From assembly GCF_056712565.1 (NCBI RefSeq), contig NZ_CM160072.1: DNA of 64,000 nt. The stretch is one strand, 5' to 3'. Below, in pieces: positions 37,099-51,186 of this stretch (positions are counted from its first letter, which is position 1; every line of letters begins with the position of its first letter). Below the pieces are notes generated by a model that did not search any database, was not told where the DNA came from, and saw only the letters and a program-made list of their open reading frames with translations. A program made the position numbers and the translations under genes.

Positions 37099-37266
37099 CT
37101 GACTGATTCGTCATTCCCTTCGTCCCGCCAGTCACTGGTGTTTGTATCGTACCGTCCGGTGTTGATGTGCGTTTTCCGTGTGTCTGCACCGGCTTAACAA
37201 AATTCAACAGGGTTTGAAAAGGAACATTTCGTGCAAATAACCGAAGCCTTAATTTCAGAGCCGGGA
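37099..37266. repeat. Copy 1 of a ~150-170 bp repeat (inverted relative to copy 2 at 44502-44651) with a conserved 7-1-7 palindrome
   Basis: Manual alignment to the reverse complement of 44502-44651: blocks ccggctctgaaa, gcttcggttatttgca, tccttttcaaacc, cgccagtNactggcg, gaatgacga shared; roughly 75 percent identity. Confidence 0.6.
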
Positions 37267-37279
37267 GACATCCGGCGTT

Positions 37280-37636
37280 TTGTTCAGCAGGCGCTGGAGT
37301 TCTTTAATCTGCTTCATGGCAGCAGCAAGTTCAGAGGCAGGAACGACCTGTTCTCCTGCGGCCACAGCAGTAAGACTTCCCTCCTGGTATTGCTTGCGCC
37401 AGAGAAATAACTGGCTGGCTGCCACACCGTGTTGCCGGGCAACAAGGGAGACCGTCATTCCCGGTTCAAAGCTCTGCTGAACAATAGCGATCTTTTCCTG
37501 TGTAGTACGCCGTCTGCGTTTCTCCGGTCCTAAGACATCAATCATCTGTTCTCCAATGACTGGTCTAAAAACTAGTATTAAGACTATCACTTAAATAAGT
37601 GATATTGGTTGTCTGGAGATTCTGGGGGCTAGTCTA
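37280..37636 (-). mobile_element. insC: IS2 remnant (left inverted repeat plus 5' part of insC); rest of the element missing
   Basis: Terminal ggttgtctggagattctgggggctagtcta matches the IS2 IRL; minus-strand [56 protein letters not shown]... equals IS2 InsC until homology ends near 37280. Confidence 0.75.
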
Positions 37637-38793
37637 GTTTTAAAGCGCCCCCTGCCGTATCAGAACTGGGGAATGCTACAGGGTTTGACCTGTTCCTCGA
37701 GGATCGTAGCGGAGCTAGCCATGAAAAAATGATCCAGGCCCGAAATCAGCTTCTTGCTGAAGCGGCGAAAAGTCCAGCGTTAAACATGGTTCGTCCTAAC
37801 GGCATGAACGATGAGCCTCAGTTCCAGATTCTGATTGATGACGAGAAAGTTCAGGCGTTTAAACTGAGCATGAGCGACGTCGACAACATAATGTCAGCAG
37901 CCTGGGGTTCGATGTATGTAAATGATTTTAACGATCGTGGACGGGTGAAAAAAGTCTATATTCAGGGCGAACCCGGCTCACGTATATCACCGCAGGATTT
38001 TGATAAATGGTATGTCCGTAACAGTGATGGCGACATGGTTTCCTTTGCCTCTTTTGCAACAGGCAAATGGATTTATGGCTCACCAAAACTGGAGCAATAT
38101 AATGGTATCTCTGCTGTCGAAATCCTGGGGGAACCGGCACCAGGATACAGTTCCGGGGATGCAATGAAAGCAATTGAGGATATTGCGGCAAGACTTCCCG
38201 AAGGTTTCCATATTTCCTGGACAGGTTTGTCTTTTGAGGAACGACTTTCAGGTTCTCAGGCTCCTGCACTATATGCACTTTCACTGTTGATCGTCTTTCT
38301 GTGTCTGGCTGCACTGTATGAAAGCTGGAGCATTCCTTTCTCGGTCATGCTGGTTGTTCCGCTTGGTGTCCTGGGGGCTGTCTGTGCTACTTTGTTGCGC
38401 GGCCTTGGTAACGATGTCTTTTTCCAGGTCGGTTTATTAACAACAATAGGGCTGTCTGCGAAAAATGCCATACTTATCGTGGAGTTTGCTCGTGAATTGC
38501 ATGAGAAAGAAGGACTAAGCATTAAAGAGGCTGCTGTTGAAGCGGCGAGAGTGAGGTTAAGACCGATAATTATGACTTCGCTGGCATTTGTAATGGGGGT
38601 TATCCCACTGGCTGTCTCGACTGGAGCAAGTTCCGGAAGTAAACATGCCATCGGTACTGGTGTGGTTGGAGGGATGATCACTGCTACGATACTGGCAATC
38701 TTTTATATTCCTCTCTTCTATATGTTAATTGCCGGGTTCTTCAGCCGCAGAAATAAGAAATCATCGGATAAGACTGAAGCTGAGCAATCATAA
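37637..38793 (+). pseudogene. RND multidrug efflux pump (AcrB/AcrF-like), C-terminal ~350 residues only; 5' part removed at the IS2 junction
   Basis: [28 protein letters not shown]...[25 protein letters not shown]... aligns with AcrB residues ~690-1049; no N-terminal two thirds. Confidence 0.8.
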
Positions 38794-38892
38794 GCATGAG
38801 TAAATATTCAGGTGCAGTAAACAACATACTGCGCCTGAGTAAATGGCTGTTGGGTTGGTACTAAATGCCCCAGAGATATTTCCTGAAATAAG

Positions 38893-39493
38893 ATGTCAAT
38901 GGAGATTTCAACAGTGGTGCGGCACACAAAATTTGCAGCGGAAGAAACCCGCAAACAAATCCTGGATGTGGCAGAGTTCTGCTTTTGTGAGACGGGCTTT
39001 TCGAAGACGACACTGGAGATGATTGCGGCGCGCGCAGGTTGTACTCGGGGGGCCATATACTGGTATTTCAACGAAAAAAAAGATCTTCTGCGACAAGTCA
39101 TCGAGCGGGTACCACTATCATTATTTGATGAGCTTACAGCCATCAAAAATGGGAGAGTTTTTGAACCGGTTAAAGCGATGTATCGTTGCTTATCACGTAG
39201 CCTGATTAAATTACAATATAATGTACACTTACGGAATGTAATTTATATTGTGTTTTTTTTGTGAAGAATGTCCGGATGATATAAGAATAAATTTCTTACA
39301 AAAAATGGTGGATGTCAATAATTTTGTGAAATTACTATGTTATATTTTCGAAAAAGGTAAGTTATATAGAGAAATATGTTTGGAAATTCGTAGTGAGACT
39401 CTGGCGTTCCTGCTTTTTTCTTTGTTTACGGGGGGGGGCGAAGTTGCATTCTGCAACCTGATAATAAATCCCTTTTCAGAGAGGGTTGCATAG
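38893..39493 (+). pseudogene. TetR-family regulator (AcrR/EnvR-like), apparently frameshifted
   Basis: N-terminal TetR HTH (TTLEMIAARAGCTRGAIYWYFNEKKDLL) in the 38893-39264 ORF; remainder continues in another frame (39248-39493); T8 run at 39253-39260. Confidence 0.55.
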
Positions 39494-39535
39494 TACTGGA
39501 GTTGACCCAATCAACCTTCACAGGCATCGATAAAA

Positions 39536-39881
39536 ATGAACGCTACTATAAAAAACAGCTCTGATATCAATGAGTTTGCTAAATGGATTGATGAAAATCT
39601 TGAGGTAGAACTCTCAATAAATATTGAGGCAAAAAAAGCTGGATATTCAAAATGGTATTTACAGAGATTGTTTAAACATATCATTGGTATTTCTATTGGT
39701 AGGTATATTAATAAATGCAGCAGAAGAACTACGTTCTACTACTGAATCGGTCACGACTATCACTTTTAAATATCAGTTTGATTTTCAGCAGACATTTACA
39801 AGGGCATTTACTCGCCGCTTTGGTATAGCTCCTATTGCATACCGAAAACTCGCTAAGGAAGAAGTGAGATGGAATAGTTAG
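39536..39881 (+). pseudogene. MarA/SoxS-like small AraC-family regulator, split across two frames
   Basis: INEFAKWIDENLEVELSINIEAKKAGYSKWYLQRLFKHIIG in one frame, FDFQQTFTRAFTRRFGIAPIAYRK in the next; together they resemble MarA. Confidence 0.5.
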
Positions 39882-40237
39882 TTATGTAAGCGTTATTTAC
39901 TTAAGCGTGGATATATAAGAATGATATTATCAATATGTTGCTCATGAGTTTTTAATAGCATATAGGCTTGTTAACATAGCCCAGCAATATACTTTGCAGT
40001 GGGAGCAGGTATGCATACAGAACAGTGGGCGAGGACGAGCGTCCCTTTTCGAACAAGGTAGCAAAAGAGGAAGAAGAAAGACAAATACAACTGGGCCTGA
40101 AAGGGTAGTGTTTAAGCCCCCTTTCAGGGGGCCGTGTCAAAGCCGCCCGCTATGCAGATGGTTTTTTACTTTATCTGTTAAGCAAAAAAATGCCGCGATA
40201 AAGAAATTGTTACCGCGGCAGCGTCATAGCAATTTAC

Positions 40238-40783
40238 TTATTTTTTCTTGCCGCTGGAACGAGGACCTTTCTTTGCTGCCTCCTGCGGTACATCAGATTT
40301 TGTAGGTTTAGTGTTTTCTATTGAGGGTTTAACTGGTTGATGCTGCTCCACGGACTTCAGCGTTTCATCAGTGACATCCATACAGGATGCGCTGATTGAC
40401 GTATCAAGGTTAACCACCGGGAATGTCTGTGAAGGCGCGTTTTCAGCCTGCAGTGTCGGTTGTGCAGCAGGCACTTCAGGTTGAGGTTCTGCGACGCCGG
40501 CGGTCACTTTAGAGTGAATAATCTGCTCGATATGCTGCGCGGTGCGGGCGATCACCTTATGGGCATACACCTCGCCAACCCGGCTTGCCGCGCTGATGGC
40601 TGCCGCTACCGCCGCGTTAATTGCGCCCACTTCCCCTTCCAGCTTCACGGTCACCATCCCGCCGCCTTTCGTCAATTCATAGCCTACCAGACTAACGTTA
40701 GCGGATTTCATTGCGGCATCGGCGGCTTCTACCGCCGCAGACATCCCGACGGTTTCGATTAAGCCTAAACTTTTCCCAGACAT
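40238..40783 (-). CDS. BMC-H shell protein (PduA/EutM fold) with ~90-aa Pro/Lys-rich C-terminal extension
   Basis: MSGKSLGLIETVGMSAAVEAADAAMKSANVSLVGYELTKGGGMVTVKLEGEVGAINAAV... then a low-complexity tail; start at internal Met preferred over ORF-track start. Confidence 0.8.
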   Translation of the reverse strand: MSGKSLGLIETVGMSAAVEAADAAMKSANVSLVGYELTKGGGMVTVKLEGEVGAINAAVAAAISAASRVGEVYAHKVIARTAQHIEQIIHSKVTAGVAEPQPEVPAAQPTLQAENAPSQTFPVVNLDTSISASCMDVTDETLKSVEQHQPVKPSIENTKPTKSDVPQEAAKKGPRSSGKKK

Positions 40784-40827
40784 AAATTTCTCCTGTAATA
40801 AATTCAACTGTGCTGCGCGTCGTCGGC

Positions 40828-41979
40828 TTAACGTCCAACGTCTTCGTATAATAGCGCCGCTTTGTCCGTAACTTCCCACGGAAAGCTGTCGCGACCAAAG
40901 TGACCATAGCAGGCTGTTTTACGATAGCGGGGGACCAGCAGATCAAGCGTAGTAATGATGCCGAACACGCTAAGATCGAAATGGCTGTTAACGCCTCTCA
41001 GCAACGCTTCAGATGACACTGTTTGTGTACCGAAGGTGTTAATCCTGACGGAAACAGGGCGGGGCAGGCCGATGGCCCATCCCAACTGGACTTCACAGCG
41101 TGAGGCAAGCCCAGCGGCGACGATGTTTTTCGCCACATAGCGAGCAGCGTAGGCGGCGGAACGATCGACTTTCGACGGATCTTTGCCTGAAAACGCGCCG
41201 CCGCCATGGCAAGCCGCGCCGCCATAGGTATCAACAATAATTTTACGCCCCGTTAGCCCGCAGTCACCCACCGGCCCGCCAATCACAAAACTGCCTGCAG
41301 GGTTCACCAGAAAGCGGGTTTGTGGTGTGAGCCAGTGCGAAGGCATCACAGGTTTAACAATTTCTTCGATGACCGCTTCCCGTAGCGCGTCCAGAGAAAC
41401 GTCAGGGCTGTGTTGGGTAGACACCACAACGGTATCTACTGAATGAACACGATTATCCTGATAGCGCAGGGTAACCTGGCTTTTGGCATCAGGGAGTAAA
41501 AATGGTAACCGTTGGGATTTACGCAACTGCGCCTGGCGCTCCATCAGACGATGGGCGTATACCAGCGTGGCGGGCATCAGTTCCGACGTTTCATCACAGG
41601 CGTAACCGAAGGTGATGCCCTGATCGCCCGCCCCCAGTTCTTCCATCGAGTGGCCGCGAATGCCTTCAGCAATATTGGCGGACTGTTTGCCAAGGATATT
41701 TAATACACAGCAGGTATTGCCATCAAACCCCAATCGCGAATGGTCGTAACCAATCTCTTTTATGGTGTTGCGGACAATCTTCTCAATATCCACGGCGGCA
41801 TGGGTAGATATTTCTCCGGCAACAATAGTGGCACCAGTTTTCACCAAGCATTCACAGGCAACCTTACCCCACGGGTCCTGTAGGAGTATCGCATCCAAAA
41901 TGGCATCAGAAATTTGGTCCGCCATTTTATCGGGATGCCCTTCGGCAACGGATTCGGAGGTAAACAGGTAATCGTTCAA
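40828..41979 (-). CDS. S-adenosylmethionine synthetase paralog (MetK family) within the microcompartment locus
   Basis: 383-aa ORF with MetK signatures [71 protein letters not shown]. Confidence 0.9.
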
Positions 41980-42107
41980 AGCGAGCCCACTTGTTTGGGA
42001 AGTTTATTCCTATCTTAGGATAGGAACCTGACAAGTGGGCGTAAACTATCTTGCGGGCGTGTTGGACTATTTTGCTTTCATTATCGGGCCAATGCAAAAT
42101 CACGCCA

Positions 42108-43163
42108 TCACCGTGTAATTCCCGGGGACACGACTTTTCGATAATCAGAGGGGGTCATGCCAGTATCTTTTTTGAAGATGCGGCAAAAATAGTTTGAATC
42201 CTGGTATGCCAGTTCCAGCGCAATGGTATTTACTTGTAAGTCACTGAACCGCAATAACGATTTGGCGATAGTAATTTTACGCGTGGCAATATAGTTCGAA
42301 AACCCGAACCCGGTAATTTTCTTAAAGGTACGGCTCAAATAGCAGGCACTGACAAACGATTTTGCTGCCACGTCATCGAGCGTCAAGTTTCTGAGAATAT
42401 TTTTCTCAATATGGAATTTCGCTCGTTCGATAAAATCGATATTGCCTGTATAGCCTTTTAATGCGTAATCAAACAGCTCTTCGCTAATGGTCAGCAGGCT
42501 GATCATGATGCGGAAATAGCGGCTTTCCATCATGCCATACTGGTTGATGTCTTTGATCAGCGCGGCGACTTTACGGTTAGTCGGCATTAACTTTTCCCCT
42601 TTGGCGGTCATATACTGGCTAACTATTTCCAGAAAATCGATCACGTCTTTGCGCTTATCCTCTTCTATCATATCCACCGGACAGGCACCGTTGAGCGTGT
42701 CAAAAATAAAGTTGTGCCACTGGGTGTAATCGCAATCGTCTATCATGGCGAACACTTTCTGTTTTAGGGCGCGGGATTTTTCATTTTCTCCTTCGTCGAA
42801 TGCTAGGGTTTTTTTGATGGTGTCGGTCAAGATACATTTTTTCACTGGTTTGAGCAGATAATCATCCACTTTAAGGTTGTACATGCTGCGTACTATATCA
42901 AAGTCATCATTGGCCGTGATTACGATGATTTTAGTATCGCTGTTTTTTTTCTTCAGATATTCAATCACCTGTTTACCGTTCGGCAACGGAATATTAATGT
43001 CCACTAAGATCATATCGATTTGACTCAGTTGGTCAATTAAGTGAATCGCTTTTTTACCGGTTGAGGCTTCATGGATCGCAGCGTTTTCCACACACTGGGA
43101 GATAATCTGCCGCAGGGATTCTAATTCGATGGGCTCATCTTCAACGATAACAATGGTAAACAT
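42108..43163 (-). CDS. Response regulator with CheY-like receiver and C-terminal AraC-type HTH (YesN-like)
   Basis: 351-aa ORF MFTIVIVEDEPIELESL...DMILVDINIPLPNGKQV... and C-terminal AraC HTH. Confidence 0.85.
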   Translation of the reverse strand: MFTIVIVEDEPIELESLRQIISQCVENAAIHEASTGKKAIHLIDQLSQIDMILVDINIPLPNGKQVIEYLKKKNSDTKIIVITANDDFDIVRSMYNLKVDDYLLKPVKKCILTDTIKKTLAFDEGENEKSRALKQKVFAMIDDCDYTQWHNFIFDTLNGACPVDMIEEDKRKDVIDFLEIVSQYMTAKGEKLMPTNRKVAALIKDINQYGMMESRYFRIMISLLTISEELFDYALKGYTGNIDFIERAKFHIEKNILRNLTLDDVAAKSFVSACYLSRTFKKITGFGFSNYIATRKITIAKSLLRFSDLQVNTIALELAYQDSNYFCRIFKKDTGMTPSDYRKVVSPGITR

Positions 43164-43179
43164 ATGTCCTTTTCCTGTA

Positions 43180-44442
43180 TCAGGCTTCCTGCATTGGGAA
43201 CCGAAGTTTAATGGTTGTACCCATCCTGGGTTTGTTAGGGCTCATTATTTCCAAGCCATAGCTCTCGCCAAATAACAACTTCAATCTATTTTTTATGTTG
43301 TTAATGCCAATACTGCCTTTTTGCAATTTTTGGTCGCCTGATAAAATGCGATTAATGGTATCTGGTGCGATGCCGTCGCCATTGTCAGTGACTTCAATAA
43401 TCACGTTCAGGCCATCGTCCGTGGCACGGATCAGCAGATGACTATTGCTATCCCTTGGCTCCACTACGTAGTTAAAGAAGTTTTCCACCAGCGGTTGCAG
43501 GATCAAAAACGGGCAGACTACATCCAGATATTTTTCCGGGATATCGCACAGGTAATCGAAACGGTCTCTCATACGCACTTTTTGGATCGACATATAGTTG
43601 TTGACGTAATTTATTTCATTACGCAGAGTAATCAGGCCGTGACTATTTTTACGTAACAAATAGCGCATCATGTCAGAGAAATCGTGCACCATTGTTTCGG
43701 TACGCTGCGCATCTTCAAGAAAAGCTAACCGGCCAATGGTATTTAATACGTTAAATAAAAAGTGTGGATTTATCTGATAAGAGAGCGCTTTAAATTCAGC
43801 TTCATGTAGTGAGCGTTCTATCTCTACACGTTTTCTTAACTCATTAGCCAGTGCAAGATCCTTTTTACGAAGTTCGCGTTGGATATTATTGGTGTGCGCT
43901 TGTTCGACCAGATAAGACGATACGTGTAGTAACGTCGAGGCAGTAGACTCAAAACGCTCATACGGCATGCGACGTGTATTCTGGTGCAAATTAATTAACC
44001 AAGGATTATCTTTCCAGACGTCATTATTATTCAGAATATAGGAAATGCTCTGTTCTTTCTCTTCTTCGACTTTTACCTGACCGGAAATAAAAGCACCGAG
44101 ATAATGATCGTTAATCATGATTGGGACAGCGAATTCGACAAAACCGCAGTGGCAGCGATAAACCACCGGTTTGCGAGCGTGCATCGCGGCACGGCCACCA
44201 GCGTTGTCGCTTTCATAACAGTGGTGCGCCAGTGTCGGGTTGAGACGCGAACGCATGCAGAAGTCTGAAAAACCGCTGGGCTTAGTGACCGGGATACCAT
44301 TCTCATCCACAACCACGAGCGCGATCATCATTGATTTTGAAAAGTTGTCCTGCAGGGTCTGAAGGCGTTTTACATCCAAAAACTCATTTAATTTGTATTT
44401 ATTCTTCATACTTTCAGCCTGCATTTTTAAAAACATAATCAT
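43180..44442 (-). CDS. Sensor histidine kinase with N-terminal PocR-like small-molecule-binding domain (cytoplasmic, YesM/LytS-type core)
   Basis: 420-aa ORF; Cys/His-rich N-terminal domain ([22 protein letters not shown]...[14 protein letters not shown]), H-box [18 protein letters not shown]-terminal ATPase; no TM segments noted. Confidence 0.8.
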
Positions 44443-44501
44443 ATATTTATAAATAATTTGTCGCGAAAAAATTGAAATGGATCACAGCAACAAAAACAGC
44501 T

Positions 44502-44651
44502 CCGGCTCTGAAAGTAATGCTTCGGTTATTTGCAAGGGATACTCCTTTTCAAACCTTGCTGAACCAGTGCAGATACACAGGGAAACGTATACCAGAACTG
44601 CCACAATACAAACGCCAGTTACTGGCGATACGAATGGAATGACGAGGCAGT
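44502..44651. repeat. Copy 2 of the inverted repeat (see 37099-37266); lies in the upstream region of the PocR kinase operon and abuts the group II intron 3' end
   Basis: Same alignment as copy 1; contains the perfect palindrome cgccagt-t-actggcg. Confidence 0.6.
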
Positions 44652-44713
44652 CTGTCAGAAAGCCCCACATGAACGATCACCACCTACATAGGAGGTGTTT
44701 TAAAATTGATCGA

Positions 44714-46515
44714 GTAGGAGGCGGGATCACTCCCGCCGTCCTCTCACACCACCGTACATGCGGCTCCGCATACGGCGGTTCATGTTAACACTGGAACTGC
44801 CTCTGCTGTTCCAGCAGTGATATCAGACCCTGCCTGCTGAACCACGCATTCTTTATCGCCTGATTCATATGGCTTGACTCTGAGTTCCACCATGGCCCGT
44901 GGTTGTTGTACGCTGAGATCATCGCCCTGTCCTTACTCAGTCCTGCTCTTTGCAGGTTCTTTGCCCGGGTTAGCGGTCTCTTCCACTGCCGCTACAACAA
45001 GCAACGCAGTTTCCGTTTGATCCAGCCATCCAGCTCCTCCAGCACTCCTCTGACCTCCGTCAGCCTGAAGTAGCTTATCCATCCACACAGCACTGGTGTC
45101 AGAGCATTGATTGTCGCTTTCACTGATTTGCTCCGGTTTCCCGTCGTCAGACTGTGGACTTTCTCCTTCAGCCTGTTCACGCTCGTCAGGGCTATCTTCA
45201 GCTTCGCCTGTTTGTGCCATGTCACACTGTACCCGAGGAACTTCCGATCCCACGGGCGCGCCACCGCGCTCTTCTTCTCATTCACCTTCAGTTTGTTCTC
45301 CACGAACGCCCTGATGTTCTTCAGCAGATGGTCGCCCGCTTTCCGGCTGCTTACGTAGATGTTGCAGTCGTCTGCGTAGCGGCAGAAGCTGTGTCCACGA
45401 CGCTCCAGTTCTTTATCCAGTTCATCCAGCAGGATGTTCGACAGTAACGGCGACAGTGGGCCGCCCTGCAGCATGCCCGCCTGCCGTTTCTCCCTTTGCC
45501 CGTCTTTAACCATTTCCGCTTTCAGGTAGCGGCGTATCAGTCACAGCACCCGCCTGTCCTTTATCGTTCTGGCCAGACGCGTCATCAGGAGTCTGTGATC
45601 CACCCGGTCGAAGAACTTCTCCAGATCCATATCCACCACCCACCGTTTGCCACCCCGTATGTAACGCTGTGCCTGTTGCACCGCCTGCTGGATAAGCCTG
45701 TCCACCACCGTCGGGATGCCTGAGGTTCTCACGCCGCCATCCGGCTTCGGGATATCCATCCGGCGTATTGTCCGCGGCTGGTAGTTTCCGTCAATCAATG
45801 CCTGCCTGACGCTGCGCCAGTTCTTCTTCAGCCACGGTTTCAACTCCGCCACGCTGAGGTTATCCACCCCCGCCGTGCCTTTGTTTTCCACCACGCGCTG
45901 ATAAGCCAGCATCAGGTTTTCTCTCGTTATCACCGCTTCCATCGTCAGCGGCACTTCCGCTTTCGTTTGCCCACCCGCCGCCGTGCTGATTTCAGCGCCA
46001 TCATGCAGCCCTGACGGATACTGTCCGTCTCCTCTGCCGCTGGTCGCAGTGGCCTGCGCTTGTGCTTCATTAATCATCATCGGGTTCGGATGTCCTAATC
46101 ACAGTTAATCATGTTCGGCCCTTCATGCTGCCGGTTTTGCAGCACTACTACGGCGTCGGCTGACTTCTGCCGCCCCATCCCGGCGCCTCACGGCGCCGGT
46201 AGCACACTGGCAGGGCGACAGATCTCCCGGGGTAATTCACGCGACTTTCCTGCTTATGCCTGTCGGCTTTACGTCACAGCGTTCCGTGTGAGTATCGGGC
46301 TTTGGTGATTAGTGCCACCTTACCCTGCTGCGCCGCCTTAACCGCTTCCTGTTCGTCAGGCCAGCATTTTGCATCCAGCTTCCTTCAGATTTCACCTCGC
46401 GATGAACACCCTTGCCTTCCGCTAACACTTCCCCTCACCGGGTGTGTGGAGGACTTTCACCTCTTAGTCGTTCTTCTGCCACCACAGTTGAAGAACAGCG
46501 CCAGTCACGGCGCAC
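44714..46515 (-). mobile_element. Group II intron (bacterial class C-like: inserted just downstream of an intrinsic terminator)
   Basis: Minus-strand 5' end GTGCG at 46511-46515, six nt after the terminator U-tract; domain V-like hairpin (GAACCGCCGTATGCGGAGCCGCATGTACGG) and domain VI-like hairpin near 44715-44780; RT ORF inside; 3' boundary approximate. Confidence 0.7.
44992..45942 (-). pseudogene. Intron-encoded reverse transcriptase/maturase interrupted by in-frame stop codons
   Basis: RT motifs (GVDNLSV, QGGPLSPLLSNILLDELD, FCRYADDCNIYV) and X-domain (CGWISYFRL); in-frame TGA at 45541-45543 and TAG at 44992-44994 after which the frame still reads RQWKRPLTRAKNLQ. Confidence 0.7.
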
Positions 46516-46525
46516 ATAACAAAAA

Positions 46526-46548
46526 GCCAGCAGGCAGACACTGCTGGC
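46526..46548 (-). terminator. Rho-independent terminator of the upstream membrane-protein gene; insertion target of the intron
   Basis: gccagcag-gcagaca-ctgctggc hairpin flanked by A5 and T5. Confidence 0.55.
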
Positions 46549-46565
46549 TTTTTGTTATGGCGGGA

Positions 46566-47471
46566 TTAAAACAGGGGAACCAAGGTAAATAATCCAATGG
46601 TCGCCAACAGATTAATCATCGTGGTCATAATGGTGATGACCATCGCCGGCGGGTCAATATGTGTATCGCCGTGGATCAGGAAGATACGCGACATCAGTTC
46701 ACCCAATATCGCGCAAATTATGCCAACGATAGCAGCCCAAATCAGGCTACCTGATGGCACCGCTACCAACGCGGCAGGCAGCGAAATATGATGTGACACC
46801 GGTACCTGAGTATTGAAATGCAGGAAAATCAGTGAGAACGCGGAAATACCAAACGCCAGCAGCGCGCCGTTGCCGCCAAACTTCAGGCCTAAAAAGCCTG
46901 CCATCAAGCCAATACCCAAGCCCAGCACGGAAAGCTGCGGAATGCGGCTATGGTAAGGTATCCAGCACTTATCCTGCGGCGGATAGCAGTGACGAATTCC
47001 CTGCTCCGGTTTTCCAAACAGGCCAGTTTTACCGAAAACCAGACGCGAGACCACGCCAGAAATCACCACGGTTAGTGCCACGGTATCGGTCCAAGCATTG
47101 CCGGACGGGAAGGCCGGAATCTGGTTCAACCCCCAGGCGATGATGTAACCAACCGCCCCAAAAACCCCGCCTACCAGCAGCACATCGTAAGCCGCCAGAC
47201 CGCTCAACCCGGCAGTGATATCACGCCCGGAACCCAGCTTGCCTTTCTTCGCTGCATACGCCGTCGCCGCAACCCCAGCGGCAAAGCCGCCGGTGTGCGG
47301 GCCAAACAGTCCAAACGGAAAAGTAATAAAGTCCGATGATGCTCCGGTAATAATTTGCACTACCGTCATGGCGATAACCAGAAGCCCAACGAATTCAAAC
47401 GCCGCCAGCGCGCCAACAGCCGCACCAAATATGCCGCCGCCGAAGGCAACTACAATATCTAAGCTATTCAT
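46566..47471 (-). CDS. Polytopic membrane protein, probable transporter (family not recognised; no NPA motifs, so not a GlpF/PduF-type channel)
   Basis: 301-aa Gly/Ala-rich hydrophobic ORF directly downstream of the activase gene. Confidence 0.55.
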   Translation of the reverse strand: MNSLDIVVAFGGGIFGAAVGALAAFEFVGLLVIAMTVVQIITGASSDFITFPFGLFGPHTGGFAAGVAATAYAAKKGKLGSGRDITAGLSGLAAYDVLLVGGVFGAVGYIIAWGLNQIPAFPSGNAWTDTVALTVVISGVVSRLVFGKTGLFGKPEQGIRHCYPPQDKCWIPYHSRIPQLSVLGLGIGLMAGFLGLKFGGNGALLAFGISAFSLIFLHFNTQVPVSHHISLPAALVAVPSGSLIWAAIVGIICAILGELMSRIFLIHGDTHIDPPAMVITIMTTMINLLATIGLFTLVPLF

Positions 47472-47607
47472 CTAGCTTACCTCTGTAATTAAATCAAATG
47501 ACAATATAAGTAATGCAGATTGCTCTATATTTTTAAAATTGAAATAGTATTCATGCGTAACAAATAAACAAGCGCAGCATTTTTTCGCACTCTTATTACA
47601 TCTTTTA

Positions 47608-48525
47608 TTAACCGCCGATATGGCAGTTAAAACCTAAGGATTCAACCATTGCTTTTAACTCTGCCATTTGGGCTTCTTCGATACTTTTTGTATCGCCCAT
47701 CGGATACTGGCGACCAAGCAGATTATATTTATTTTCACCGAAGCTGTGATAAGGCAATAAGTGAATGGTATCGACGTTCTGCATCAGGCGGGCGAACTCC
47801 GCAATATTATGGATTTCCTGCGAATTGTCATTCACTCCTGGGATCACAGGAATACGCACAACCACTTTGGTTAAAAAGGAGATGCGCAGCAGATTCTCCA
47901 GAATCACTCTGTTATTCACGCCGGTGTTGCGCTCATGGATTTCCGGATCGATGGCTTTAATATCGGTCAGAGCAAGATCGACATAGGGAAATATCTCATC
48001 AATCACCGCTTTGGTGGTGAAGCCGCTTGTTTCAATAGCGGTGTGCCAGCCTTTGGCTTTACAGGCTTTAAGCAGCTCGCGGGCAAATTCCGGCTGCGCC
48101 AGCGGTTCACCACCGGACAGGGTAATCCCGCCGCCTGAACGCCGGTATAAATTCTCTTCTTTTTCCAGTTCGCGCATCACTGCCGTTACCGACATACGCT
48201 TGCCCTTCATTTCCAGCGCACGGGTAGGGCAAATCTCAGTACATTTCCCACACTGAATACAGCGGTCGCGATTGATAAACCAGGCATTAGTAGTGGAAAG
48301 AGCCTGTTGTGGGCAAGCATCAATACATTTTCCACAGCGGATGCAATCATTCTTTTTAAATAATAACTCTGGGCTGTGACGTTGTGATTCAGGATTACTA
48401 CACCATTTGCAGGACAGCGGGCAGCCTTTAAAAAAAGGAATGGTTCGAATGCCTGGACCATCATGCAAAGAATAGCGTTGAATATTAAATATGACGCCTT
48501 CGGTTTCGTACTCAACTTTATTCAT
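47608..48525 (-). CDS. Glycyl-radical enzyme activating enzyme (radical SAM, with two ferredoxin-like 4Fe-4S motifs)
   Basis: 305-aa ORF with CPLSCKWCSNPE radical-SAM motif and CIRCGKCIDACP / CIQCGKCTEICP clusters. Confidence 0.9.
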   Translation of the reverse strand: MNKVEYETEGVIFNIQRYSLHDGPGIRTIPFFKGCPLSCKWCSNPESQRHSPELLFKKNDCIRCGKCIDACPQQALSTTNAWFINRDRCIQCGKCTEICPTRALEMKGKRMSVTAVMRELEKEENLYRRSGGGITLSGGEPLAQPEFARELLKACKAKGWHTAIETSGFTTKAVIDEIFPYVDLALTDIKAIDPEIHERNTGVNNRVILENLLRISFLTKVVVRIPVIPGVNDNSQEIHNIAEFARLMQNVDTIHLLPYHSFGENKYNLLGRQYPMGDTKSIEEAQMAELKAMVESLGFNCHIGG

Positions 48526-48633
48526 AACATCACTCTATATTTACCAGATGAATTACCTTTTCAGATAAAAGTAACAACCAGAAGTCGTGGAGAAAGTAAC
48601 GGGCTATATATTGATACATAGCCCGTCTGGTAT

Positions 48634-51186
48634 TTACGACAGTTGTTGCTCAGTACGGCTGATTATGTCGTCCTGAACTTCTTTCGCTAAAACTACCCAC
48701 TGGGCGCTATAGCCCGCAACGCGTACCACCAGATCCTGATGTTGCTCAGGATTTTTCTGGGCTTCGATCAAAGTGTTGCGGTCGATAACGTTAAATTGAA
48801 CGTGCATCCCTTTCTTATCGAAGTAGTGACGTATCAGGCCGCTGAAGTTGCGCAGACCGTTCTCGCCAGCCAAAGAAGACGGCAGGAATTTCTGATTATA
48901 GAGCGTACCGTTGGAGGCGATAAAGTGATCCAGTTTGGCAACTGAGTTGGCTGCGGCGGTTGGGCCAAGGGTGTCTTTACCCTGACGTGGAGATACGCCA
49001 TCCGCCAACGGCTCTTTCGCCAGACGGCCATCCGGCAGTGCGGCAACGTCTTTACCAAACAGCACGTTCGCAGACACCGGATAGATACCAGCCTGGAACT
49101 GGCCACCGCGCGGGTTGGTATATTTCTCAACTTCCTGGCAGTAGATCAGCGCACATTTACGCGCTACTAAATCCACGTCATCGATGTCGTTACCGAAGCA
49201 CGGTGTGTTTTCCAGAATACGACGGATCTCCTCGTGACGGGACATAGTGCCGGATTGCACCGGTGCTGCACTGCCGGAAGTCAGCTGGCGATAAACTTCG
49301 TTTTTAATCGCTGCCGGATCCAGCGCGCCATGCTGTTCAATGATGCGTTTCACCACATCGTAGATATCCTGCTCGTTGAGCGAGGATTTCGCCGCTGGAG
49401 TGTGCGGGTTCGCACCCACCGGATAACCGAAGTTGGCGTCCAGTGCGCTTTTCAGTTCGCTCAAAGACAGTTTACGATCTTCGAATACCTGTTTCTGGAT
49501 GGCATAGACGGAGTCGCCGGTATCGGCTACGCCGAATGCTTGCGGCCCAGTAAAGTTGTAAATCGCCCCGCCTTCCTGGAGAGATTTACCACGGCCGATA
49601 CAGTCGTCGACCAGTGCTGATAGGAACGGCAGCGGGCAGCGTTCGCCGTGGGCAATATCCACGCTGTTACAGGCTTCAACCAGTTGATGAACGAAGTGCG
49701 CCATCTGTTTCTGGAACGCGGTGTAGAAGTCCTCCATGCTGGTGAACTGAGTCAGTTCGCCAGTCACTGGGCCTAGCTGTTTATTGCCAACGCGACCGTT
49801 GTTCAGGGTGATTTCCAGCACTTTTGCAACGTTAAAGAACGCGGCGTCATGCCAGCCCTCGGTGCGATGCGGTGCCTGCGGCTCTACGCAGCCGATGATA
49901 CAGTAATCACGCGCATCACGCAGCGAAATGCCACGGTTCTGCAGCGCCGGGATGATTACTTCATCGTTGTACATTGCCGGAACGCCCAGGCCCATACGCA
50001 CCAGCTCGCAAGCGCGATACAGAAACTCATCCGGAGTACCCTGCCATACGCGGATTGAGAAGGATGGCTGCGGCAGACGCACATGGGCAGTCGCTTCCAT
50101 ACACATGTAGCTCAGATCGTTAGTTGCGTCGCGACCGTCTTCTGTCTGGCCGCCACAGCACAGGTTCTGGAACACTGCGTAACCGGCAAACGCCTGGGCA
50201 GAGACTTCGTCACGCGTTTTGTTAATGTCGTTAAGCTTGATCCAGCAGCAATCCACCAGTTCCTGCGCGAATTCACGCGAGATAGATTTGTCCGACTCCA
50301 GATACGGGTACATATACTGGTCGAAACGCCCCGGGGAGATAGAATGACCGCTGGATTCAATCTGTAACATGCTCTGAATAAACCAGAATGTCTGGCATGC
50401 TTCCCAGAATGTGGTAGCACCGTATTCCGGCACGCGAGTACAGTTTTGAGCAATCTGCTCCAGTTCGCGTTTACGGGTCGGATTGCTCTCCTGCTGCGCC
50501 AGACGGGATGCTTCTTCAGCGTAACGATGGGCGAAACGGATCGCTGCGTTATAACTGATCAGCACCGCATTATAGAACTGTTCTTTCTTTATATATCCTG
50601 GTTCAGTGCGATCTAATGATTCCAAGGCACGGCTAACTTCATTAATGATACCACGGAAACCAATTTTCAGCACTTTACCGTAGTCAACACTGACATGACC
50701 GACGCCCCCGAAGAAGTAGTTACCAACAGTGAATACACCGCTCGCCATACTCTCTTTAGTGCCTTCTGACATGTAAGATGCCGCCAGAGCACTGGTAGTT
50801 TTACCCGGCCAGTATTTAAATGCTTCATGAAGCTCCTGAGCAGTCTTTTTCGGGATAACAAACGGGTCGGCAATACGGTGTTCCATAGTCTCAAACTCTT
50901 TTTCCACCCAGTCGTAGGAGAACTCAGGGCAGATTTCAGTTGAGCGAGGATTAATAGTTACCGCTCCAACGATTAATTCGTCTGGGCGAATTGTTACCGG
51001 TAATTGGTTAAAGATTTTTTCCACCACTTTAGCACGACGCATAATCGCGGGCAGTTGTTCTGTTTCTTTATATGCTTCGGTTGCTAACACCGCGCGTTCT
51101 GATTCCACATACGGCTTCGCCGTCAGGATCATATTTCTCAGTCTTACAACACGGTCTGTCGGATTAGAAAAGCCTTTCTCTAACAT
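48634..51186 (-). CDS. Glycyl radical enzyme of the dehydratase/eliminase clade (probably B12-independent 1,2-propanediol dehydratase; choline TMA-lyase or another diol/amino-alcohol lyase not excluded)
   Basis: 850-aa ORF with catalytic GCVEP motif (DYCIIGCVEPQ) and C-terminal glycyl radical motif VVRVAGYSAQW; substrate assignment is inference from locus context. Confidence 0.85.
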   Translation of the reverse strand: MLEKGFSNPTDRVVRLRNMILTAKPYVESERAVLATEAYKETEQLPAIMRRAKVVEKIFNQLPVTIRPDELIVGAVTINPRSTEICPEFSYDWVEKEFETMEHRIADPFVIPKKTAQELHEAFKYWPGKTTSALAASYMSEGTKESMASGVFTVGNYFFGGVGHVSVDYGKVLKIGFRGIINEVSRALESLDRTEPGYIKKEQFYNAVLISYNAAIRFAHRYAEEASRLAQQESNPTRKRELEQIAQNCTRVPEYGATTFWEACQTFWFIQSMLQIESSGHSISPGRFDQYMYPYLESDKSISREFAQELVDCCWIKLNDINKTRDEVSAQAFAGYAVFQNLCCGGQTEDGRDATNDLSYMCMEATAHVRLPQPSFSIRVWQGTPDEFLYRACELVRMGLGVPAMYNDEVIIPALQNRGISLRDARDYCIIGCVEPQAPHRTEGWHDAAFFNVAKVLEITLNNGRVGNKQLGPVTGELTQFTSMEDFYTAFQKQMAHFVHQLVEACNSVDIAHGERCPLPFLSALVDDCIGRGKSLQEGGAIYNFTGPQAFGVADTGDSVYAIQKQVFEDRKLSLSELKSALDANFGYPVGANPHTPAAKSSLNEQDIYDVVKRIIEQHGALDPAAIKNEVYRQLTSGSAAPVQSGTMSRHEEIRRILENTPCFGNDIDDVDLVARKCALIYCQEVEKYTNPRGGQFQAGIYPVSANVLFGKDVAALPDGRLAKEPLADGVSPRQGKDTLGPTAAANSVAKLDHFIASNGTLYNQKFLPSSLAGENGLRNFSGLIRHYFDKKGMHVQFNVIDRNTLIEAQKNPEQHQDLVVRVAGYSAQWVVLAKEVQDDIISRTEQQLS

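Follow-up and report, generated by a model that had tools for sequence, protein, structure and literature searches.

A decayed E.c.I6 class C group II intron behind the grpO terminator in the grp island of Escherichia coli

Why does a sequence resembling a group II intron, with a reverse transcriptase gene interrupted by stop codons, lie in the middle of an Escherichia coli gene cluster, and can it still splice or move? The question is raised by a stretch of 64,000 nucleotides from contig NZ_CM160072.1 (RefSeq assembly GCF_056712565.1), referred to here as the window, which carries the grp cluster, grpA to grpS. A preliminary description of this DNA had proposed a group II intron on the minus strand, with hairpins resembling domains V and VI at its far end. 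Both proposals were borne out by an Rfam search of positions 40000-50000, in which three group II covariance models, one of them the domain V/VI model, exceeded their gathering scores with full-length matches on that strand (Table 1). A scan of the whole window with Rfam detected no further group II intron copy or fragment. Matches to the Rfam Thr_leader model at 46457-46598 (37 and 27 bits versus a gathering score of 55) were rejected as spurious, since they originate from the terminator hairpin next to the intron.

Table 1. Positions of the intron, its parts, its lesions and its flanks in the window
Feature	Position	Strand	Basis or remark
grpO intrinsic terminator stem-loop, stem GCCAGCAG/CTGCTGGC	46526..46548	-	5'-exon hairpin targeted by the intron
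T-tail and IBS1-like 5'-exon end TTTTTGTTAT	46516..46525	-	last exon base 46516
E.c.I6 group II intron (class C / IIC), decayed copy	44709..46515	-	1807 nt; Rfam and alignment
19-nt deletion site (46508/46507), 5' domain I: GTGCGCCG^TGACTGG	46507..46513	-	alignment with intact copies
Domain I core	46237..46406	-	RF02001 (group-II-D1D4-3), full-length match, 139.7 bits, E = 1.2e-29
RF01998 segment	46118..46202	-	RF01998 (group-II-D1D4-1), full-length match, 73.8 bits, E = 3.5e-12; end of domain I / domains II-III assigned by position
Reverse transcriptase/maturase (LtrA-like) pseudogene	44785..46080	-	431 codons including two internal stops; intact homologue 462 aa
87-nt in-frame deletion site (45689/45688), between GCAGGCG direct repeats	45682..45689	-	alignment with intact copies
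In-frame TGA	45541..45543	-	AGA (Arg) in intact copies
6-nt in-frame deletion site (45292/45291), CTGAAA/CTGAAG repeat	45286..45292	-	residues LK lost
In-frame TAG, maturase (X/GIIM) region	44992..44994	-	TGG (Trp) in intact copies
Domains V and VI	44709..44780	-	RF00029, full-length match, 48.5 bits, E = 3e-7; domain VI bulged A; intron terminus AU
Intron 3' flank, not the ancestral 3' exon	44501..44708	-	no counterpart in relatives

The limits of the element were defined by alignment with two plasmid-borne copies, L001 and L003, whose similarity to the window begins at GTGCG and stops at ...CCTACTCGAT. The 5' GTGCG occupies 46515-46511 and the sequence ends with ...CTCGAT at 44709 (CCUACUCGAU). 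Boundary signals of the GUGYG and AY types are both present, exactly where similarity among 12 copies starts and stops and where the published coordinates place them. The 3' end had initially been placed at 44714; the end of similarity between copies and the published length of 1807 nt move it by 5 nt, to 44709. E.c.I6 is the name used in the Zimmerly group II intron database, and copies designated -1a and -1b have been reported in E. coli CFT073, ED1a, APEC O1 and S88 (Leclercq and Cordaux 2012, PLoS One, PMC3522654). The CFT073 copy E.c.I6-1a (NC_004431, 4320108-4321914) was assigned in that study to ORF class C and described as having a disrupted ORF and lying in the selC island. This interval comprises 1807 nt, begins with GTGCGCCGTGACTGG, finishes with CTACTCGAT and is located between grpO and grpP. 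Comparison with the window revealed identity at 1793 of the 1807 positions, the remainder being 13 substitutions and one N, and the 40-nt flanks are identical. Because the CFT073 interval has the same length, the same flanks and a nearly identical sequence, we identify the element by its sequence as the already catalogued E.c.I6 at the same locus; it is known, not new. Megablast against complete E. coli genomes found the sequence in 1248 of 5426. Among the matches listed, every full-length one with at least 99% identity sits between grpO and grpP, and the remaining matches are copies located elsewhere, some of them with an intact gene annotated ltrA.

The gene upstream of the intron is grpO (46566-47471, minus strand), annotated as a propanediol utilisation permease in identical E. 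coli records. The 45 nt preceding the intron, which include the terminator hairpin of this gene, have a folding energy of -26.6 kcal/mol according to RNAfold, and the same hairpin is present 3' of grpO in Atlantibacter, Citrobacter and Silvania. On the grpO side, nucleotide homology to intron-free relatives stops at 46516-46521, 0 to 5 nt from the 5' insertion site; at this junction Atlantibacter L014 reads ...GCTGGCTTTTTGTTAT|CTCTCAGG. The end of this homology fixes the 5' boundary independently and indicates that the target was the convergent terminator region between grpO and grpS. The preliminary description had located GTGCG six nucleotides after the hairpin. The position of the hairpin was right but the spacing was not, since the terminator stem and the intron are separated by 10 nt (TTTTTGTTAT), a distance that shrinks to 5 nt once the stem is taken to include its A-U extension. 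A stem-loop ending 4 to 10 nt upstream of the intron was found at all of 16 independent insertion sites, namely those of 12 E.c.I6-like copies and of 4 distant relatives from Providencia, Aeromonas and Pseudomonas plasmids. The 5' exons at the 12 E.c.I6-like sites end in (T/G/A/C)T(A/G)T, and a similar T-rich tail is present at the other sites.

The presence of a CGC triad in domain V is diagnostic of IIC introns, and in the Rfam alignment the consensus G-AGC-CGUAU is aligned to C-CGC-CGUAU in the window. The intact 462-aa homologue comprises the Pfam domains RVT_1 (residues 110-316) and GIIM (residues 332-410), and the Pfam search detected no endonuclease (En/HNH) domain in this IEP. The RNA outside the ORF amounts to about 510 nt in the window copy and about 530 nt in the intact form. 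By its target site, the domains of its IEP and its CGC triad, the intron belongs to bacterial class C (IIC), the ORF class being that given in PMC3522654. The original assignment to class C, with insertion after an intrinsic terminator, is thus upheld.

In order to define the lesions of the protein-coding part, we used plasmid copy L001 (ltrA of 462 aa, 413 bits against NCBIfam model TIGR04416 for group II reverse transcriptase/maturase) as the reference; the second reference, L003 (ltrA of 448 aa), has a 42-nt deletion of its own. The window copy likewise has its reverse transcriptase/maturase ORF in domain IV, as a pseudogene whose conceptual translation, with the stops masked, scored 321 bits against the same model (cut-off of 300). 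The TGA and TAG codons reported at the outset do interrupt the reverse transcriptase frame, which runs on through both, and comparison with intact E. coli copies revealed that they are substitutions, as had been proposed, with one base changed in each (AGA to TGA and TGG to TAG). Beyond these two stops, three deletions of 19, 87 and 6 nt distinguish the window copy from intact copies. The 87-nt deletion costs 29 residues, QAIAQQLSAIVDKSFSDSSYGFRPGRNAW, corresponding to reverse transcriptase block 2 and including the conserved SYGFRPGR, so that with the loss caused by the 6-nt deletion the pseudogene has accumulated two stops and lacks 31 residues. Further substitutions affect conserved motifs, such as GVRTLGIP changed to GVRTSGIP and GMPQGG changed to GMLQGG. 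As judged from its coding sequence, the reverse transcriptase is dead, even disregarding the two stops. The proposal that the element is immobilised agrees with a reverse transcriptase that has two stops and 31 residues deleted and with damage to the 5' part of domain I. For annotation, pipelines call two short coding sequences between grpO and grpP, "maturase" and "reverse transcriptase domain"; both are pieces of a single pseudogene located inside a dead intron, and they are not grp genes.

Intact introns of the E.c.I6 type are present on plasmids of E. coli and E. fergusonii, for example pEC5654 (NZ_CP095087.1, ltrA WP_021515390.1). They are 96.5-96.8% identical to the window copy at the nucleotide level (96.5% for L001), have the same domains and are also located after stem-loops but, unlike the window copy, they possess a complete 5' domain I and an open frame for a 462-aa reverse transcriptase/maturase, and they have none of the five lesions. 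The intact 5' form reads GTGCGCCGGGCATGGCGCGTAGCGCCGTGACTGG, in which the 19-nt deletion falls between 6-nt direct repeats (GCGCCG) within a 35-nt quasi-palindrome. Slipped-strand deletion classically takes place at direct repeats within a quasi-palindrome, and skipping by the reverse transcriptase during retrohoming may also contribute to the 19-nt deletion.

The structural consequences of this deletion were evaluated by covariation on diverged relatives. Minimum-free-energy folding of domain I in the long and short forms gave local pairing at the 5' end that did not reproduce the native architecture; it was uninformative on native helices and was used only for the quasi-palindrome and for the way in which the 5' splice site might be sequestered. 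Seven long-form sequences (three from E. coli, one from Aeromonas, one from Providencia and two from Pseudomonas) were compared over their first 310 nt, and four helices were counted: I(i), in which nt 6-10 pair with CCYGG near the 3' end of domain I (columns 6-10/307-311), I(ii), in which nt 15-19 pair with CGCGC, and two hairpins, a and b. In this comparison, 98% of the cells were paired, versus 30-47% when the partners were slid by 1 to 3 columns. Helix I(i) displayed a compensatory swap of G-C to A-U in three relatives, and hairpins a and b covary, with double changes at eight pairs. Since helix I(ii) is invariant in sequence across the relatives, its pairing is a presumed one. The pattern GUGCGCCRGGCAYGGCGCGU is likewise invariant in relatives from E. 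coli, Aeromonas, Providencia and Pseudomonas. The nucleotides lost are nt 9-27, which contribute to two of the five I(i) pairs and make up the 5' strands of I(ii), in its entirety, and of hairpin a. With these 19 nt gone, the window copy has no complete domain I with its basal closing helices; by descent it belongs to the group II family, though as a defective member. Minimum-free-energy folding predicts that nt 3-7 of the short form re-form the neighbouring hairpin by means of the repeat, and this pairing would sequester the 5' splice site. The ribozyme has probably lost its function. The preliminary description had left open that it may still splice, a suggestion at odds with the absence of 19 nt of 5' domain I, with the loss of strands of I(i) and I(ii) and with the lack of an encoded maturase.

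The same short 5' end was present at eight independent insertion sites: the grp locus, a site downstream of a zinc alcohol dehydrogenase gene, a site on an EAF-type plasmid, 3' of perC, and five further sites on plasmids. When domain I was aligned, the copies at the grp, perC and alcohol dehydrogenase sites each had another long-form copy, and not one another, as nearest neighbour. A single insertion at the bcs plasmid site is represented by two alleles, L003 being long and L047 being short with an intact ltrA. Because the short copies are nearest to different long copies and both alleles occur at the bcs site, we conclude that the 19-nt deletion arises repeatedly after insertion. For the same reasons, we discarded the idea that the short 5' form marks a mobile sub-lineage, and we found no sign that the short form ever moved. 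The 5' end carries a deletion hot spot, which provides such introns with a simple route to loss of the ribozyme.

A query made of the joined flanks detected an empty site in 0 of 5426 complete E. coli genomes, and in about 536 of the 5426 the flanks were split, indicating that all grp-positive genomes carry the insertion. The deletions were shared by all six of the grp-locus copies compared (those of the window, ZJ3920, CFT073 and three others at 99.0-99.2%), and both stop codons were checked in four of them; in one of the six, another 33 nt are inserted close to where the ORF ends. The lack of an empty site and the deletions shared among grp-locus copies point to one insertion that decayed and was inherited with the island. 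According to the published view, the copy was already inactive when it arrived as part of the island (PMC3522654), and a single decayed insertion fits this view. Alignment of four grp-locus sequences revealed 21 substitutions in the 1807-nt intron versus 1 in 714 nt of flanks, a higher diversity that would reflect a lack of constraint, although a single clustered tract accounts for part of it. Of the 13 differences from CFT073, ten fall in the last ~170 nt, within 44758-44923, and for eight of these ten the window has the state of mobile, L001-like copies whereas the other grp-locus copies differ. This tract looks like gene conversion from another intron copy rather than neutral drift.

The intron was initially thought to separate the enzyme/shell operon from the regulatory genes. 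It does lie between grpO and grpP, but grpR, encoding a methionine adenosyltransferase, and grpS, encoding a shell protein, both come after the regulators. GrpP and GrpQ form a working two-component system in CFT073, which uropathogenic E. coli uses to control type 1 fimbriae; the paper reporting these results (PMC11724981) mentions neither the intron nor the promoter. A GrpO scan of species-representative genomes revealed another arrangement outside E. coli: in 13 of 13 other Enterobacterales genomes with the cluster (Atlantibacter, Silvania, Citrobacter, Serratia, Symbiopectobacterium, Superficieibacter, Mixta and a MAG), grpN-grpO is followed by grpS-R-Q-P on the opposite strand, with no intron. 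In E. coli, a 4.34-kb segment (40159-44500) is inverted relative to these genomes, and all grp genes are co-directional. The 3' flank of the intron consists of 50 nt and then, at 44502-44658, of a diverged (74%) and inverted second copy of a CP4-type island-backbone intergenic element, the native copy of which lies at 37101-37292 on the plus strand of the same island. The native region upstream of grpP is cut about 58 nt before the annotated start. The other inversion junction (about 40146-40175) reads GATGGTTTTTTACTTTAT|CTGTTAAGC and resembles the uninterrupted ancestral T-tail and downstream sequence. A promoter scan of 44300-46700 returned two sites versus 1.4 expected after shuffling, with none between the intron and grpP, and thus did not support an outward promoter.

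One inversion breakpoint and the intron insertion site coincide to within 0-5 nt, and the two simple models of the inversion are each contradicted by one observation. Recombination between the two copies of the island element was not supported, since the copy at 37101-37292 is backbone-like throughout and that at 44502-44658 is uniformly ~74% identical, with no mosaic. Recombination between two inverted intron copies was not supported either, since no intron remnant was present at the other junction or elsewhere in the window.

The most satisfactory explanation, in which we have good though not complete confidence, is that an E.c.I6 class C intron inserted after the grpO terminator, decayed in place and is now an immobile, non-splicing relic carried with the grp island. 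By analogy with the known behaviour of IIC introns, an active ancestor would have inserted by retrohoming just 3' of the grpO terminator stem-loop and T-tail. The reverse transcriptase/maturase would then have lost 29 residues of block 2 and a further 2 residues and gained two nonsense codons, and the ribozyme would have lost 19 nt of 5' domain I. The relic would now be carried passively by the grp island, which specifies a glycyl-radical 1,2-propanediol microcompartment. Immobility and loss of splicing are expected because the relic encodes no functional protein and its domain I is most probably unable to fold. The cost to the host is probably small, as the relic sits past a terminator in an intergenic spacer.

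Three other readings of the locus were considered. That reverse transcriptase-like ORF fragments lie beside a terminator by chance, with no real intron, has nothing but the broken ORF in its favor and is already refuted by the Rfam E-values (1e-29, 4e-12 and 3e-7), by 94-97% identity to annotated introns bearing ltrA and by the match to the published E.c.I6; we attach practically no weight to it. A more substantial objection is that only the reverse transcriptase is dead and that an intact ribozyme splices, alone or helped by a maturase that another E.c.I6 copy provides in trans. Full-length Rfam matches cover the domain I core, the RF01998 segment and domains V/VI, the last of which are identical to those of intact L001, and intact ltrA copies with 94-97% identity circulate among plasmids of E. 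coli, from which maturase could come. The short form retains GUGCG and intact domains II-VI, and an alternative 6-bp helix (CGUGAC/GUCGCG) is possible in it; these points leave a small chance of residual splicing aided by the maturase of a plasmid copy. The short 5' end also occurs in L047, which is otherwise intact, with an ltrA annotated as complete. Yet the deletion takes conserved 5' nucleotides together with helix strands, of which that of I(i) is backed by a compensatory change, and the remaining 5' end is predicted to sequester the splice site. Moreover, the short forms at independent sites are each nearest to long-form copies and not to one another, and L047 is an allele of the long-form insertion L003. 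We therefore regard continued splicing as improbable.

The relic might also have been co-opted or have played a structural role, either by taking part in the inversion of grpPQRS in E. coli or by affecting grpPQ through read-through or an outward promoter. This reading draws on the convergent and intron-free organization of all 13 relatives, on the loss of grpO-side homology within 0 to 5 nt of the 5' insertion site of the intron, on the foreign DNA in its 3' flank, on the truncated upstream region of grpP and on the presence of the intron in all grp-positive E. coli genomes. Outward promoters have also been reported for IIC-attC introns (PMC3001079). Against it, neither the other junction nor the rest of the window contains a second copy or fragment of the intron, and the other junction is uninterrupted, unlike the product of recombination between two intron copies. 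Promoter-like sites do not exceed the shuffle expectation, and acquisition of the island in a single event accounts equally well for fixation. Co-option is thus quite unlikely in our estimation, and the decayed, passively carried relic remains our preferred explanation. That the intron marks, and may have taken part in, the rearrangement specific to the grp island of E. coli is a proposal that we consider unlikely. If it were true, and recombination had acted on the intron or on a partner copy since lost, the GrpP/GrpQ two-component system would have had its transcription rewired by a selfish retroelement. The relic does sit at the junction of an inversion by which the grp locus of E. coli differs from those of other genera, a position that may matter for grpPQ regulation in uropathogenic E. 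coli.

The additions of this analysis to the published record are modest. They comprise the true length of the intron (1919 nt), the recurrence of the 5' deletion, the fixation of the insertion in all grp-positive E. coli and its position at an inversion junction.

The intron of Oceanobacillus iheyensis, for which a crystal structure is available, is a characterised IIC intron that combines a small ribozyme with a terminator target and a short IBS1. We take E.c.I6, this intron and B.h.I1 of Bacillus halodurans to have in common a 5' GUGYGCC.GGCAUGG motif and, in domain V, the CGC triad. B.h.I1 is likewise a characterised IIC intron with a small ribozyme that inserts after terminator stem-loops and has a short IBS1 (PMC1702495). 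Both B.h.I1 and the O. iheyensis intron belong to another host phylum, are only distantly related in sequence and are functional ribozymes, whereas the window copy is decayed. Within the Enterobacterales, Di.ze.I1 and So.gl.I1 are class C introns that follow Rho-independent terminators and have conserved IBS1 and IBS3 (PMC3522654), and they are distinct from E.c.I6. For E.c.I6 itself, the same study treated the 1807-nt form as "full length", whereas the plasmid copies indicate that this catalogued form arose by deletion from an intron of 1919 nt, which continues to circulate intact on plasmids.

In 13 of the 13 other Enterobacterales genomes compared (loci L013-L027), the 4.3-kb segment comprising grpS, grpR, grpQ, and grpP (window positions 40159 to 44500) is found on the opposite strand and is convergent with grpO. 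The segment is inverted in E. coli relative to these genomes, and the entire E. coli grp locus is co-directional because of this inversion. One breakpoint of the inversion coincides with the insertion site of the group II intron. The sequence at the other junction (GATGGTTTTTTACTTTAT/CTGTTAAGC, the slash marking the junction) is similar to the T-tail of the grpO terminator followed by the original downstream sequence of Atlantibacter (GCTGGCTTTTTGTTTTAT/CTGCTAAGC), and on the strength of this similarity the T-tail seems to be present at both inversion junctions.

In E. coli, the native region upstream of grpP is reduced to ~58 nt (positions 44443 to 44500), corresponding to ~90 nt when counted from the MKNKY start used in relatives. 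A further ~90 to 130 nt, common to Atlantibacter, Citrobacter, and Silvania, are absent from E. coli. The intron is adjoined by an intergenic element of ~150 to 190 nt, present in 3,492 of 5,426 E. coli genomes, which is placed 3' of an alpA-like HTH gene and 5' of a UCP030791-family gene in CP4-type island backbones. Comparison with a related island backbone (L046) revealed that the UCP030791 gene is replaced in the window by the grp cluster together with the gene remnants beyond grpS (positions 37293 to 60942).

Features of the inverted segment, its surroundings, and the intron 5' end
Feature	Position	Strand	Remark
Intergenic element, native copy	37101-37292	+	Inverted relative to the copy adjoining the intron; ~74% identity
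Remnants of transposase, RND efflux permease, TetR regulator, and AraC-family fragments	37279-39881		Beyond grpS
Other inversion junction	40146-40175	+	
Intergenic element, copy adjoining the intron	44502-44658	-	~74% identical to the other copy
Terminator-like hairpin in the adjoining copy	44613-44627		
Intron 5' end with the 19-nt deletion	46507-46515		Deletion also in intron copies L005/L006, L009, and L047-L051

At eight independent insertion sites, E.c.I6-type introns display an identical 19-nt deletion between GCGCCG repeats at their 5' ends. Both a long allele (L003) and a short allele (L047, with an intact ltrA) were found at the bcs plasmid site. The deletion is a recurrent deletion hot spot within a quasi-palindrome.

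Another decayed E.c.I6-type copy (L005/L006) is located on the 3' side of a gene for a zinc alcohol dehydrogenase. From this copy, 18 nt have been lost in domain I and ~40 nt at a more downstream location, and an IS3-family element splits it. In the grp-locus copy L042 (NZ_CP195459.1), 33 additional nt are inserted close to where the open reading frame ends on its 3' side, at the equivalent of position ~44837.

Comparison of the window intron with that of CFT073 revealed 13 differences, 10 of which are clustered between positions 44758 and 44923. At 8 of these 10 positions, the window has the state of the mobile copies resembling plasmid copy L001, and four other grp-locus copies differ. Judging from this pattern of shared states, the tract was probably acquired by gene conversion from another intron copy.
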